A DNA stretch of 64,000 nucleotides, from positions 90,806-154,805 of the forward strand of contig CBDBBL010000018.1 of NCBI GenBank assembly GCA_965203125.1. The letters are read 5' to 3'. This document shows, piece by piece, positions 21,854 to 24,953 of this stretch. This DNA comes from Gammaproteobacteria bacterium (GTDB lineage Bacteria > Pseudomonadota > Gammaproteobacteria > CBDBBL01). A model generated the notes under the pieces. That model saw only the letters and a program-made list of their open reading frames with translations. It was not told the DNA's origin and made no database searches. Both the position numbers and the translations under genes were made by a program. Within the stretch, counting starts at the first letter, position 1; each line of letters opens with the position of its first letter.

Positions 21854-22753
21854 GTGCCATCGATTTTGGATTTACGCGGTAGAGAGTTGGCTCGATTTAT
21901 TTTAAATGATCCTAAAATCACAAAGGACAATGCACCTTATTCAGCTAGTCTACTCAGGCAACAAACGACAACCACTGGATTCTCATCATATCCCGATTTG
22001 AAAGCCTTAAATAACGCCAGATTAATTCATGACTTGCCCACATTAGAAGTAGGGTGTGGCGTAGGTCGTGTGATGTCATTTTTAACCCAACCACAACTTG
22101 AAAAAAATGCAGATGGTCCAACTCACATTAAAAGCCCACTTGTCAGCCCACAACACCTCACTGGAATTAATTGTACGACAACATTTACGCAAGAGATATA
22201 TCAAAAAACACCAAGAACTGATATCCAAAGCCCACAAACCAGTCCCTCTTCTGGCACAATACAACCAGTATCTGATCAACCAATAGTCAGAATCATAGAT
22301 TTCAGAGAATTCGTTAATCTATGTCTACAAACAAATACTACCTACCAACAAATTTTTTGGCTATGGACTGCTATTTCAGAATACACATTTGAAGCACAAT
22401 GCCACTTATTACAGCAACTTTTTTCAATCGTACAGCCATCGATTCATCATCACGCATATCTTGCGGTTGATATATTGATTGATACTCATTATTATCCGAA
22501 CCGTGTTCGTTGCGACACAGGGTGGGGCTGGAAAATTTCACATATGACAGATAAAGGGCTTAAAGTTTTTTATATGCCAGATATAGAGACCATGGAAAAC
22601 TATAGTGCTGACATAGGCTGTCAACGCCTACAAAAAATACCTTATGTCACAGCAACACCAGAAGGAAGAGAGGTATTGCGCTGTATTATTGTGTATAATA
22701 AACCGATATTAAGACAACGAGCACGATCTGTTAGTTATTTTTGTCATATTTAA
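21854..22753 (+). CDS. Class I SAM-methyltransferase-like protein, paralog 1 (Pro/Gln/Ser/Thr-rich insert; degenerate post-I motif)
   Basis: Motif I LEVGCGVGR; WLWTAISEY...YLAVDILIDT shared with paralog 2; GTG 21854 preceded by GGAGAG; ORF-track start 21713 would read through the palindrome. Confidence 0.65.
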   Translation: MPSILDLRGRELARFILNDPKITKDNAPYSASLLRQQTTTTGFSSYPDLKALNNARLIHDLPTLEVGCGVGRVMSFLTQPQLEKNADGPTHIKSPLVSPQHLTGINCTTTFTQEIYQKTPRTDIQSPQTSPSSGTIQPVSDQPIVRIIDFREFVNLCLQTNTTYQQIFWLWTAISEYTFEAQCHLLQQLFSIVQPSIHHHAYLAVDILIDTHYYPNRVRCDTGWGWKISHMTDKGLKVFYMPDIETMENYSADIGCQRLQKIPYVTATPEGREVLRCIIVYNKPILRQRARSVSYFCHI

Positions 22754-22776
22754 TTGATTCAAATGAGGGAGAGATC

Positions 22777-23625
22777 ATGACTGTATATTCAATAGAAGAA
22801 CTACAAATATACGCAGAAAGAACTGGAATACACCGCTGCCCAGACTTAACTGCTCTGCAACAAAATAGGCTCATTCGCAACGTGCCTACGCTTGAGGTAG
22901 GCTGTGGTTTTGGCAGGGTATTATCTTATCTACATCATAATGCGCTTGTTGATAGTCGCAAACATACAGCTGTCGACGTCTCTAGGCCTTTCATGAACTA
23001 TTATGCGCGGGAATTATTGCAAATGTATCCTTGCACACCTCAAAGAACACAGTCACAGCAGATTGTGACCCCAACATTACCATATAGCTGTGGATCAACA
23101 CTAATTCCTAGCCGAATAGAGGATTACTTATCAACACACTTTCATGCTCGATACTCTCAAATACTATGGTTGTGGACAGGAATATCCGAGTACAGCTTTG
23201 ACAATCAATTAACCACACTCAAGCAACTATTTTCTCATGTATCACCCAGTGGGTATTTGGCTGTTGATATATTATTGGACACCCCGCAACAAACACATCA
23301 ATGTAATCAACTAACATCTTTTGTAGATGGTTCATACCAACTTACCGCGCAACTTTCTCGTGGTAGGACGCAATCATGCGATATGCCGAGTGTCTTACGT
23401 ATGATAGATTACGGCAAACATTTACAAGCAGGTCAATGGCAGTTTGTGCACTACAATACGATTAACTGTGCAGAAATAAGACAGGATCGTTGTATTGTTA
23501 TCTACCATAAGGATAAAGAAACTCAACACAGAGGAACCTATCCTCCATTAGATGAACTAAGATCATCGGAATCGGAGTCGGAAGAAGCAAGCTTTGACCT
23601 TGTCGGCAGTTATTTGCAATATTAA
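22777..23625 (+). CDS. Class I SAM-methyltransferase-like protein, paralog 2 (acidic Glu/Ser-rich C-terminus)
   Basis: Motif I LEVGCGFGR, post-I TAVDVS, WLWTGISEY..SPSGYLAVDILLDT; ATG 22777 preceded by GAGGGAGAG. Confidence 0.7.
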   Translation: MTVYSIEELQIYAERTGIHRCPDLTALQQNRLIRNVPTLEVGCGFGRVLSYLHHNALVDSRKHTAVDVSRPFMNYYARELLQMYPCTPQRTQSQQIVTPTLPYSCGSTLIPSRIEDYLSTHFHARYSQILWLWTGISEYSFDNQLTTLKQLFSHVSPSGYLAVDILLDTPQQTHQCNQLTSFVDGSYQLTAQLSRGRTQSCDMPSVLRMIDYGKHLQAGQWQFVHYNTINCAEIRQDRCIVIYHKDKETQHRGTYPPLDELRSSESESEEASFDLVGSYLQY

Positions 23626-24953
23626 GTGCTAATACGCACACATCCATGAAAAAATGCTGAACGTTCGGTTAAAGGCAAATGGGTGAAATGCGCTTTCTGT
23701 GCTAGCTTGAACCCACGGTCTTCGTAGAGAGTGCACGCTGAGTAAATGCTTTCTTCAACAATTTCATCCAGATGGAAAAAGTCAAACTCTGTCACGGCAA
23801 CAACTTGATGAATGGAAGTACTCCCTGAAACTTCCATTTCTTGTTTGTGCACTAATAATGCACTTAAAAAGCGCAACAAAACGTCTTTAACTTTTATTAA
23901 GTCAGTTAATAAGCTCTTTCGTTGATTTTTTTTCTCAAAATAATTAATCATGGTCGGGAAGTTTAATGAATAATACTGTGGCGCTTCAGTGTCAGCATAC
24001 ACATTACTATAAGCACCTAGTAAAATCGGTTGTTGCCTAATTTCATAACCTTCAAGAAAAGCCTTCTGTAAAAAAGAAACTGGAGCGACGCTATCATCAA
24101 TAAGCGGTGAAAACCCTGGCATGCCTTTGCTGGAAATCATTAGTAAATGCTTGACGGTTGATAACACAAAAGGGCACAATTGCAATGCTTGATCTTCAAT
24201 AATTTTAGATAGCTCAAGCTCCCAATAAAACAGCTTTCTCCAAAAGCACGTTGCTAACCAATTCTTTTTCAATAGGTAATGACTAAATCCTACCCAGGAC
24301 ATGTCATCTGAGATAACTTTTTCACACCACCGCCGAGGAAAAAATAATAGCTCTGTATCCCAAGGCTCATCAGAGAACAACGAAACCTGACTAAAAAGTT
24401 TCCAGTAATCCTGTATAGAAGACGGTATTGAAAATCGCCCTCCTAAGTGCTTACTCATTTTTCTCATATTATTCGTATTAGTAAGCTTAGGAAGAGAAAT
24501 AACACTCCTAGCTCCGGAGGTCATATAAAAATCGACTGGAAAATTCTGAGCGCATCCCATGGAAATATCTAACAATCGCTGTCCACTTAAAACTGCCCCT
24601 GCAGGTACAATTCCAAAGCTTACCACGCTATTTTTTAATGGGGTGAAAACTTCAATATTGCGTCGAATCGGCATCAATAATGGATTGAAATTGGCCGTTG
24701 CCATTAAATCTTCTTTAACTTGCGCTGGAATATCAGGAGAGTCAATAGGGATTAATTTGCGACTATTATGCTGTGGTATGTATAGTTTGCTTTTTCGCCC
24801 AATCTCAGCACCATAAGGATAAGTCGCGGTATATAAGTAATAACGATCATCGGGTGATATCTCATCAATGATTTTTGCCAACTCTGGGTTAAGCTGCATT
24901 ACACGTTCACGAACATCACCCCAAGTGACTTTATCCAATGCTAGCTTCGTCAT
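23622..24953 (-). CDS. Conserved protein of unknown function, family copy 1 (443 aa); paralog at 61639..63039
   Basis: Shared blocks with copy 2: VMQLNPELAKIIDEI, ELLFFPRRW, YYSLNFPT, FHGCVRI; stop codon overlaps stop of convergent gene (TTAA). Confidence 0.75.
   Translation of the reverse strand: MTKLALDKVTWGDVRERVMQLNPELAKIIDEISPDDRYYLYTATYPYGAEIGRKSKLYIPQHNSRKLIPIDSPDIPAQVKEDLMATANFNPLLMPIRRNIEVFTPLKNSVVSFGIVPAGAVLSGQRLLDISMGCAQNFPVDFYMTSGARSVISLPKLTNTNNMRKMSKHLGGRFSIPSSIQDYWKLFSQVSLFSDEPWDTELLFFPRRWCEKVISDDMSWVGFSHYLLKKNWLATCFWRKLFYWELELSKIIEDQALQLCPFVLSTVKHLLMISSKGMPGFSPLIDDSVAPVSFLQKAFLEGYEIRQQPILLGAYSNVYADTEAPQYYSLNFPTMINYFEKKNQRKSLLTDLIKVKDVLLRFLSALLVHKQEMEVSGSTSIHQVVAVTEFDFFHLDEIVEESIYSACTLYEDRGFKLAQKAHFTHLPLTERSAFFHGCVRIST

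Follow-up and report, generated by a model that had tools for sequence, protein, structure and literature searches.

The DNA examined here, a window of 64,000 nucleotides from a Gammaproteobacteria bacterium (assembly GCA_965203125.1, contig CBDBBL010000018.1), carries at 21854–24953 two tandem genes resembling S-adenosylmethionine (SAM)-dependent methyltransferases that face a gene for an uncharacterized protein of 443 residues, and a second copy of the latter lies 37 kb away. We use the name FAM for the family of this protein. FAM is a new, large and lineage-restricted family with an unmatched fold, and its association with methyltransferases of two unrelated folds, with thioamidation/ATP-grasp operons and with POT/MFS transporters is tight and ancient. 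On the reading that we favor, to which we assign a probability of roughly one half, the cluster is a diverged and lineage-specific version of a conserved gammaproteobacterial module of the Legionellales/Francisellaceae type, in which FAM would be an enzyme acting on peptides. The three open reading frames (ORFs) and the second copy had been described in an earlier note made from the sequence alone; ORF calling recovered all of them, and the overlap of two stop codons that it reported is confirmed; the arrangement is clearly nonrandom. The principal features are as follows.

21854–22753, forward strand: methyltransferase paralog 1 (299 residues), an ORF with a GTG start; a diverged class I SAM methyltransferase of the FAM-associated methyltransferase family
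22777–23625, forward strand: methyltransferase paralog 2 (282 residues), an ORF; a class I SAM methyltransferase of the same family as paralog 1, with its SAM-binding motifs intact
23622–24953, reverse strand: FAM copy 1 (443 residues), an ORF of the uncharacterized family; a beta-roll forms its N-terminal part and an alpha/beta domain its C-terminal part
23622–23625, no strand: the sequence TTAA, in which the stop codons of paralog 2 and FAM copy 1 overlap
61639–63039, forward strand: FAM copy 2 (466 residues counted from its ATG, with the ORF beginning at the GTG at 61624), a member of a methyltransferase-less, POT-linked clade
63008–64000, forward strand: gene for a POT-family oligopeptide:H+ symporter, truncated by the window end (Pfam PTR2 7.8e-35, MFS_1 3.7e-20)

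The FAM family and its conserved neighborhood

The two FAM proteins of the window align end to end at 28% identity (BLASTP, E 5e-60) and share the motifs from which their kinship had been proposed; copy 2 scores 540 bits against the family hidden Markov model (HMM). The suspicion that the 443-residue protein belongs to no recognizable family was borne out, with no matches in Pfam (E<=1), NCBIfam or a sequence profile search of the PDB, none in PADLOC for five FAM proteins and both window methyltransferases, and no recurring family when 99 FAM members were scanned singly against Pfam; none of these searches mapped FAM confidently to a known family. A word-index search retrieved 28 full-length homologs, all annotated as hypothetical and devoid of Pfam matches, and its repetition with a 99-sequence profile gave the same ~30 proteins and nothing further. 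The family is nevertheless large: among 1.84 billion cluster representatives, an HMM search matched 1,614 FAM clusters (50% identity) at E<=1e-3 and 891 at E<=1e-30, with lengths of 426–473 residues among the 150 matches listed.

The AlphaFold2 model of FAM copy 1, made with the family alignment, is confident (predicted local distance difference test score, pLDDT, 86.8; predicted template modeling score, pTM, 0.87), and its C-terminal two thirds are without a PDB neighbor. Foldseek returned no PDB match to the whole model at E<=0.001, and the best matches were all beta-rolls of the cyclic nucleotide monophosphate (cNMP)-binding/CRP-FNR/PrfA type (E 0.01–0.3, probability up to 0.97, template modeling (TM) score ~0.2 of the query). 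Modeled alone, the C-terminal 288 residues reached pLDDT 83.3 and again had no PDB neighbor by Foldseek (best E 3.8), nor did FAM match any of the viral structures in BFVD. A pentein or caspase-like Cys/His hydrolase fold, an idea that came from the C-terminal cysteine, was dropped, as Foldseek would have caught such folds.

Residue conservation, computed over 211 FAM sequences, singles out the polar positions Y45, E101 (96%), R149 (92%), R239, Y303 (~100%), Y327/Y328/S329, H394 (99%), D412 (91%) and C438 (93%), and the E/R/Y/S/H/D/C positions persist in all four clades into which the family sorts by genomic context, the most divergent included. Judged from the alignment, these residues look like an active site. 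FAM copy 1 keeps all of the conserved polar positions (E101, R149, Y303, S329, H394, D412 and C438); copy 2 is substituted at two of them (E101 to Q and R149 to N). Three tandem second copies in other loci (L016:9627–10964, L019:10117–11457 and L038:1564–4181; L numbers are our locus handles) have Val/Ala instead of Cys438 and keep His394, and may be noncatalytic partner paralogs.

Gene neighborhoods were surveyed in 37 nonredundant loci with 46 FAM genes, in which ORFs were called and clustered. Strong recurrence is limited to two neighbor families, with 24 genes in 19 loci for a class I methyltransferase and 19 genes in 17 loci for an MFS/POT transporter. A Pfam census of the 150 genes within three genes of FAM gave the same two at its head:

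MFS_1: 21 genes (17 also PTR2/POT)
Methyltransf_25: 18 genes
Response_reg: 8 genes
GerE: 4 genes
Any other family: at most 2 genes

The class I methyltransferase is the immediate convergent neighbor of 19 of the 46 FAM genes, and 19 out of 20 adjacent class I methyltransferases are convergent. The gap from stop to stop is −21 to +3 nucleotides in 17 of these 19 convergent pairs (median −4), and the TTAA of the window matches this exactly. A POT/MFS gene adjoins 14 of the 46 FAM genes, either divergent upstream (11 loci, at 71–448 nucleotides) or downstream on the same strand with an overlap (window copy 2, L027 and L033). In most loci the POT transporters pass the Pfam PTR2 and NCBIfam oligopeptide:H+ symporter thresholds, as does the neighbor of copy 2 (PTR2 120.9 bits, gathering cutoff 27). 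These are ordinary members of the POT/PTR2 family of di/tripeptide:H+ symporters (DtpA/DtpT-like), and the novelty lies in their fixed pairing with FAM. The co-occurrence of FAM homologs with methyltransferases and transporters, on which the earlier note had made its proposal of a module depend, is thus clear.

The same data invite the view that FAM is a ligand-sensing regulator or adaptor; with a peptide or nucleotide bound to its beta-roll, it would control the divergent POT and the convergent methyltransferase genes. All of the best Foldseek matches are indeed CRP/FNR/PrfA-type regulators or cNMP-binding domains, one of the 99 FAM members matches Pfam cNMP_binding (E 0.025), and a POT gene placed divergently upstream is the classical layout of a regulator and its target. 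However, Pfam and NCBIfam revealed no helix-turn-helix (HTH) or other DNA-binding domain in any of the 99 members. The likeness to the CRP/FNR-type beta-roll, which is the sole structural resemblance of FAM, is weak (E of at least 0.01, with the low TM score given above) and covers only the N-terminal third, leaving the C-terminal 288 residues without a counterpart, and there is no sequence relation, as hhalign of the FAM profile against Escherichia coli CRP gave a probability of 0.4%. Moreover, LuxR-type regulators already accompany the module (on the plasmid pLPP, a 64-residue protein divergent from FAM reads by eye as a LuxR/GerE-type HTH), and the C-terminal polar residues of FAM look catalytic. 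We therefore consider a sensor role improbable.

Borosin and thioamidation contexts of FAM relatives

Plasmids of Legionella pneumophila LPE509 and L. israelensis have, convergent on FAM, a gene with the annotation "SAM-dependent methyltransferase" whose product belongs to TP_methylase (Pfam 1.4e-15). Over its full length it matches borosin alpha-N-methyltransferases (dbOphMA 1e-37, OphMA 3e-36, SonM 4e-35). Such an enzyme stands in L043, L045 and L049–L054. In loci of this borosin type the N-methyltransferase shares one operon with an MFS transporter gene and an ORF of 64–66 residues, the small ORFs being L043:9110–9304 and L045:8078–8278 on the reverse strand and L049:5790–5987 and L052:409–609 on the forward strand. 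All four start with M and a short Leu/Lys-rich stretch, with an N-terminal LEKMA in three, and they are probable precursors of Legionella borosins that lack the borosin-binding domain (BBD); the 64-residue LEKMA peptide showed no similarity to SonA or to any PDB chain. A metagenome scan that started from the borosin-type N-methyltransferase yielded eight loci, and FAM is convergent downstream in five of the six that extend far enough.

Lee et al. 2024 include both plasmid N-methyltransferases (WP_015445035.1 and WP_143869580.1) in their tree of borosin N-methyltransferases. According to the borosin papers, Legionellales contribute 81 of 746 type IV borosin N-methyltransferases, which are divergent and whose clusters lack the BBD, and FAM goes unmentioned in the text consulted. 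The published Legionellales borosin precursor motif (..LLD.IE.AVGNEY.., reconstructed from the supplement) was absent from every locus examined. Two methyltransferases of unrelated folds thus stand at an identical position relative to FAM, which is strong contextual evidence that the function of FAM is coupled to methylation of a common substrate, a peptide in the borosin case. The window has the geometry of split borosin clusters (the SonM/SonA type IV arrangement and its BBD-less Legionellales subset), a methyltransferase convergent on FAM with overlapping stops. It departs from them in that its methyltransferases have the class I Rossmann fold, unrelated to the N-methyltransferases of the TP_methylase type, and in that no precursor-like ORF lies beside them, the ORFs of 64–66 residues being limited to borosin-type loci. 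A restriction-modification-like pair, suggested by the convergent overlapping ends, was dropped, since neither type of methyltransferase is a DNA methyltransferase.

A second kind of peptide chemistry adjoins FAM in L004, L044, L047 and L048, where the neighbors are YcaO/TfuA-type genes. On plasmids of the pLPP and pLPL type, the order is a POT gene, two small genes and FAM, and FAM heads an operon in which it overlaps an ATP-grasp gene by 29 nucleotides, followed by ThiS, ThiF, YcaO and TfuA. In L004, from a metagenome-assembled genome (MAG), a second FAM copy heads an operon of two paralogous peptides of 41 and 37 residues, ThiS, ThiF-rhodanese, YcaO and TfuA, and on pPC1000_1 FAM is convergent on TfuA-YcaO-ThiS and a related 42-residue peptide. 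The small ORFs (L004:16451–16810, reverse strand, in tandem with the ends ..ITVRIEK and ..LTLRIEK; L047:9555–9683, reverse strand, 42 residues and related) lie directly 5' of ThiS-(ThiF)-YcaO-TfuA and were seen only in L004 and L047. They look like candidate precursors of thioamide RiPPs (peptides that ribosomes synthesize and that are modified after translation), and an HMM of them found no relatives in the window or in the class I methyltransferase modules. In one further setting, L001 from a 2.8-Mb MAG, the genes after FAM encode a heme-oxygenase-like oxidase and an ATP-grasp enzyme of the L-amino-acid-ligase type. The enzymes of all these settings either build peptides or modify the peptide backbone.

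These loci resemble thioamidation cassettes of the thioamitide type (YcaO/TfuA/ThiS/ThiF), within which FAM is either the head of the operon (pLPP-/pLPL-type plasmids and the MAG) or convergent (pPC1000_1). In the window, no YcaO, TfuA or ThiS/ThiF gene was found among the scanned ORFs, which are part of all window ORFs, and the FAM copies associated with the cassettes form the most divergent clade. A literature search on the Legionella plasmid genes gave no functional data, just a figure legend (ycaO/tfuA of unknown function) and a plasmid-tagging experiment. Taken together, the contexts of borosin N-methyltransferase and precursor, ATP-grasp, YcaO/TfuA and di/tripeptide transporter point to short peptides as substrate. 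Of the methylation module around a novel enzyme-like family that the earlier note had envisaged, the tie to methylation and to transporters stands, and the generic small molecule or protein that it had proposed as the substrate gives way to short peptides.

It could also be imagined that FAM is itself the substrate, its own residues or backbone being methylated or thioamidated by the neighboring methyltransferase or YcaO/TfuA. Methyl-coenzyme M reductase offers an analogy, since it carries a thioglycine made by YcaO-TfuA and an S-methyl-Cys made by a class I methyltransferase. The sole constant across all contexts is FAM plus an enzyme that modifies peptides or proteins (class I methyltransferase, borosin N-methyltransferase or thioamidation cassette), and neither the class I methyltransferase modules nor those of the pLPP type have a small precursor ORF. 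Large proteins of unknown function have also been flagged as possible split-borosin precursors (bioRxiv 10.1101/2021.12.24.474128). However, the ORFs of 64–66 residues in the N-methyltransferase operons of borosin-type loci and the peptides of 37–42 residues in L004/L047 would be more obvious substrates, and FAM has neither repeats nor a hypervariable tail, its C terminus being modeled as a confidently folded strand. On balance, we give little credence to FAM as the modified protein.

The distribution of FAM is narrow. A scan of GTDB with one genome per species gave 34 loci, all in uncultured MAGs classified as Gammaproteobacteria, Legionellales, Coxiellaceae, Francisellaceae or Thiotrichales, and tblastn against PLSDB gave 30 plasmids with FAM, 29 from Legionella and one from Francisella novicida, of which 27 are conjugative. 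The Legionella hosts are L. pneumophila (including pLPP and pLPL), L. longbeachae, L. israelensis, L. hackeliae, L. fallonii, L. sainthelensi and Legionella sp. PC1000; no phage record matched FAM. Several FAM copies per genome are common and often in tandem. As for the host of the window, its AtpD reaches at most 87% identity to any non-self sequence among the matches listed, and the named ones (84–86%) are spread over several gammaproteobacterial orders, so that AtpD does not place it. A neighbor-joining tree sorts the family by context. The large clade linked to class I methyltransferases (with or without POT) includes FAM copy 1 on a long basal branch, a methyltransferase-less, POT-linked group holds FAM copy 2 with P0013/L001, the clade with borosin N-methyltransferase and MFS is sister to the latter group, and the thioamidation-linked copies form a deeply divergent clade. 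Since copies 1 and 2 fall into different, anciently separated clades, they are ancient paralogs and not recent duplicates.

Two observations on other loci may be added. CsrA paralogs and small ribbon-helix-helix (RHH)-like proteins recur near FAM modules (L020:7577–7816, L022:10449–11191; the Legionella plasmids L043, L047 and L048), and as such genes also accompany FAM on Legionella conjugative plasmids, their presence suggests that many chromosomal FAM copies are inside integrated mobile elements. At L013:7986–9989, from a MAG, FAM is split into two overlapping ORFs and its convergent methyltransferase into two fragments, which is either a decaying module or the result of long-read frameshift errors.

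The diverged methyltransferase pair of the window

The further features of the window that bear on the module are these.

22100–22324, forward strand: insert of ~75 residues in paralog 1, rich in Pro/Gln/Ser/Thr, between motif I and the beta3/post-II region (from the split of the HMM match)
23002–23121, forward strand: insert of ~40 residues in paralog 2, rich in Pro/Gln/Ser/Thr (from the split of the HMM match)
23512–23622, forward strand: acidic C-terminal extension of paralog 2 (..DELRSSESESEEASFDLVGSYLQY); the other methyltransferases stop ~35 residues sooner in the alignment
21479–21853, no strand: region of 375 nucleotides 5' of the methyltransferase pair, presumed to be its promoter region
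60680–61066, reverse strand: gene for a small HTH regulator of the LuxR/GerE type, placed divergently to FAM copy 2 (Pfam GerE 1.4e-11)

The two methyltransferase-like genes had been taken for paralogs, and their products indeed share 33% identity over 265 columns (BLASTP, E 2e-31) as well as the common motifs that had been quoted. An HMM was built from 19 class I methyltransferases adjacent to FAM in related loci, leaving out the window sequences, and matched both paralog 1 (57.8 bits, E 5e-14) and paralog 2 (77.4 bits, E 5e-20), which makes them members of the FAM-adjacent family. In either case the match comes in two pieces, at residues 30–82 and 158–272 of paralog 1 and 5–75 and 116–244 of paralog 2, leaving inserts at 83–157 and 76–115, respectively. 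An alignment of the two with the 19 homologs (21 sequences) bears out the low-complexity inserts after motif I that had been noticed in both paralogs and finds no counterpart in any of the 19. Pfam gave no match for paralog 1 and weak ones for paralog 2 (Methyltransf_12/25/11, 22.8 bits against a cutoff of 30); other members of the FAM-adjacent family do pass Methyltransf_25 (47.8 bits, cutoff 27).

The glycine-rich loop of motif I is kept in both paralogs (LEVGCGVGRV in paralog 1, LEVGCGFGRV in paralog 2) and aligns with ILE[IV]GAGYGRV of the 19 homologs. The acidic residue at the end of beta2, which binds the ribose of SAM, is E in 19 of the 21 sequences; paralog 2 has D67 there (AVDVS), whereas paralog 1 has N (GINCT) and a beta2 region that does not align to the family HMM. 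Both findings support the catalytic impairment that had been suspected of paralog 1, which has lost the ribose-binding acid and is probably inactive or noncatalytic. Paralog 2 keeps its SAM-binding residues and is probably active. Both window paralogs lack the N-terminal W.N.DN..FYE motif of the family. With a duplicated methyltransferase, unique inserts in both copies and a paralog 1 without its SAM-binding acid, the window module is a derived one. As to substrate, the best PDB and NCBIfam matches of the FAM-adjacent methyltransferase profile are amine/peptide N-methyltransferases (E 1e-7 to 1e-11), among them phosphoethanolamine N-methyltransferase, plantazolicin BpumL, NTMT1, the daptide methyltransferase and OlsG. 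The family has its fold and SAM motifs in common with these class I enzymes, from which the window paralogs are set apart by the large inserts, the missing W.N.DN..FYE and, in paralog 1, the missing acidic residue.

The acidic C-terminal tail that had been described for paralog 2 is confirmed as a Ser/Glu-rich stretch of ~35 residues, and within the 21-sequence alignment it is confined to this protein. It bears on the alternative, also put forward in the earlier note, that the genes encode secreted effectors of the Dot/Icm type and that the tail is a translocation signal. In favor of this, the tail has Glu at −13, −14, −16 and −18 and hydrophobic residues at its end, which we take to resemble the published E-block signal, and FAM is confined to Legionellales/Francisellaceae-like lineages and rich in paralogs. 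However, the likeness to E-block effectors is one of tail composition in paralog 2 alone, and neither paralog 1, nor the 19 other family methyltransferases, nor the two FAM copies fit it. The C terminus of FAM is a conserved, confidently folded core strand (GC[IV]RIS) and no disordered acidic signal, synteny with inner-membrane transporters is kept across deep divergence, one FAM clade overlaps a POT gene on the same strand, and the family is embedded in RiPP-type operons; its context, unlike that of Dot/Icm effectors, is metabolic or biosynthetic. Furthermore, there is no eukaryote-like domain, and no gene of a type IVB secretion system (dot/icm) was found among the scanned ORFs of the 64-kb window, which has housekeeping and pilB/pilC-like genes. 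For the 443-residue family the effector alternative is not supported, for the tail of paralog 2 a signal role is conceivable, and for the genes as a whole we regard the alternative as very unlikely.

A GGAGAG Shine-Dalgarno-like motif precedes the GTG at 21854, and a terminator-like hairpin of the preceding gene lies at 21491–21510. A scan for small ORFs upstream of class I methyltransferases, the window included, found nothing conserved, and the 375-nucleotide region contains no precursor-like small ORF but just one unconserved ORF of 30 residues. By Rfam, neither the cluster nor the window as a whole has a riboswitch or other RNA element, promoter-like sites do not exceed the shuffled expectation, and terminator-like sites exceed it by ~1.6 standard deviations, with none between the convergent stops. 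As the GC content of the cluster (~0.39–0.40) equals that of the rest of the window, nothing suggests recent import. It lies amid housekeeping genes, namely those for thiamine diphosphokinase and two small membrane proteins as well as pilB/pilC-like genes and dnaX, and no transporter gene adjoins FAM copy 1. The POT gene at 63008–64000 overlaps the end of FAM copy 2 on the same strand (−32 nucleotides, taking the first possible start), and the two are probably co-transcribed.

Several further observations concern other parts of the window. The PilB/GspE-like ATPase at 25067–26146 (forward strand) is short, with 359 residues, and its match to PilB/GspE models is confined to their C-terminal ATPase part and stays under all equivalog cutoffs; a HofC/PilC-like gene comes next. 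At 32635–36739 (reverse strand) the isoleucine-tRNA ligase ORF (716 residues) spans only model positions ~226–857, and its N-terminal part must be in separate upstream ORFs, beside an AAA_14/DUF4143 ATPase gene at 35543–36739; a frameshift, a fault of the assembly or disruption of the gene could account for this split. The enolase ORF at 44128–45123 (reverse strand) begins within the N-terminal domain, with Enolase_N matched at positions 91–131 only, which suggests a frameshift or a mis-assembled start. Two AAA_14-type ATPase genes lie amid the housekeeping genes, at 35543–36739 (reverse strand) and 47600–48733 (forward strand), with DUF4143 in one of them, and where the second lies the GC skew is locally reversed (47–49 kb). 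Short ORFs at 58791–60096, just 5' of the LuxR-like genes and FAM copy 2, read as fragments of an IS3-family transposase (an OrfA-like HTH at 59803–60096 and integrase C-terminal pieces at 59263–59806), and from ~59 kb onward the GC skew is no longer strongly negative.

What FAM may do

We postulate that FAM, a cytoplasmic protein of ~440 residues, would be an enzyme on short peptides, either processing and maturing them or breaking down peptides with a modified backbone. The methyltransferase would N-methylate the substrate of FAM, and the POT/MFS transporter would carry the peptide across the inner membrane. More speculatively, E101 and R149 of the beta-roll might clamp a charged end of the substrate, and H394, D412, C438 and S329, which may lie at the edge of the C-terminal sheet, might be catalytic; a Cys/His-dependent peptidase or transferase is our preferred guess for the reaction. 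In the window, the methyltransferase gene would have been duplicated after gaining its insert, and paralog 1 would then have lost the ribose-binding acid.

Several points weigh against this proposal. The likeness of the methyltransferases to N-methyltransferases is far under the family cutoffs, which makes the substrate class just a hint, and the class I methyltransferase modules, that of the window included, have no conserved precursor-like small ORF, so that a RiPP-like reading is not directly transferable to them. C438 is replaced in ~7% of the members, which would be strange if it were an obligate nucleophile. Given the long branches of FAM copy 1 and of the two window methyltransferases, their function may have drifted. 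Finally, FAM, methyltransferase and POT are in most cases transcribed separately, from convergent or divergent genes, which would fit a regulator and its target or a producer and its immunity gene equally well.

The last of these points leads to the alternative that FAM is a self-immunity or resistance enzyme, which would inactivate or sequester a toxic modified peptide, made by the cluster or imported by POT, the overlap with the methyltransferase gene providing reciprocal antisense control. In most cases FAM has a transcript to itself that runs convergent to the biosynthetic operon, no space being left for a terminator, many modules are on conjugative plasmids or beside mobile-element genes of the CsrA/RHH type, and the precursor-less modules would make sense as orphan resistance islands. 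POT importers, too, are classical entry routes of peptide antimetabolites. However, FAM is the first gene of the thioamidation operon on pLPP-/pLPL-type plasmids and in L004, in places overlapping the ATP-grasp gene, a position more typical of a pathway enzyme, and one clade has FAM overlapping a POT gene that follows it on the same strand. An immunity function thus seems to us unlikely, and we retain the peptide enzyme as the preferred role.

The window is a member of no described system, and the closest are the BBD-less split-borosin clusters of Legionellales and the YcaO/TfuA thioamide clusters, of which the FAM relatives are an unrecognized conserved component. A wider proposal, which we put forward only tentatively, is that FAM represents an enzyme class with a new fold, a common core of peptide pathways specific to Legionellales/Francisellaceae. 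It would then be the missing maturation or recognition part of the BBD-less borosin and plasmid thioamide clusters, and the precursor-less modules of POT, FAM and class I methyltransferase, that of the window among them, might be an unknown route by which imported di/tripeptides are processed and N-methylated inside intracellular bacteria.

Sequences of the plasmids pLPP and pLPL of Legionella have been available since 2004, and the borosin field has remarked on the N-methyltransferases of Legionellales as numerous, divergent and devoid of the usual precursor-binding domain. The gene for a protein of ~440 residues beside them was nevertheless overlooked on such well-studied plasmids and has so far gone undescribed. 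It joins one structurally novel protein with three peptide-modifying chemistries (class I methylation, backbone N-methylation and thioamidation) and with peptide transporters, and FAM is thus a testable candidate for an unknown step of maturation, recognition or resistance. The window itself, as a derived example with a duplicated methyltransferase, one probably dead copy and an effector-like tail, could illustrate how such a module is repurposed. With ~1,600 clusters, FAM may be a widespread trait of amoeba-associated Gammaproteobacteria, and it could bear on their peptide nutrition, on signaling and on competition between bacteria.

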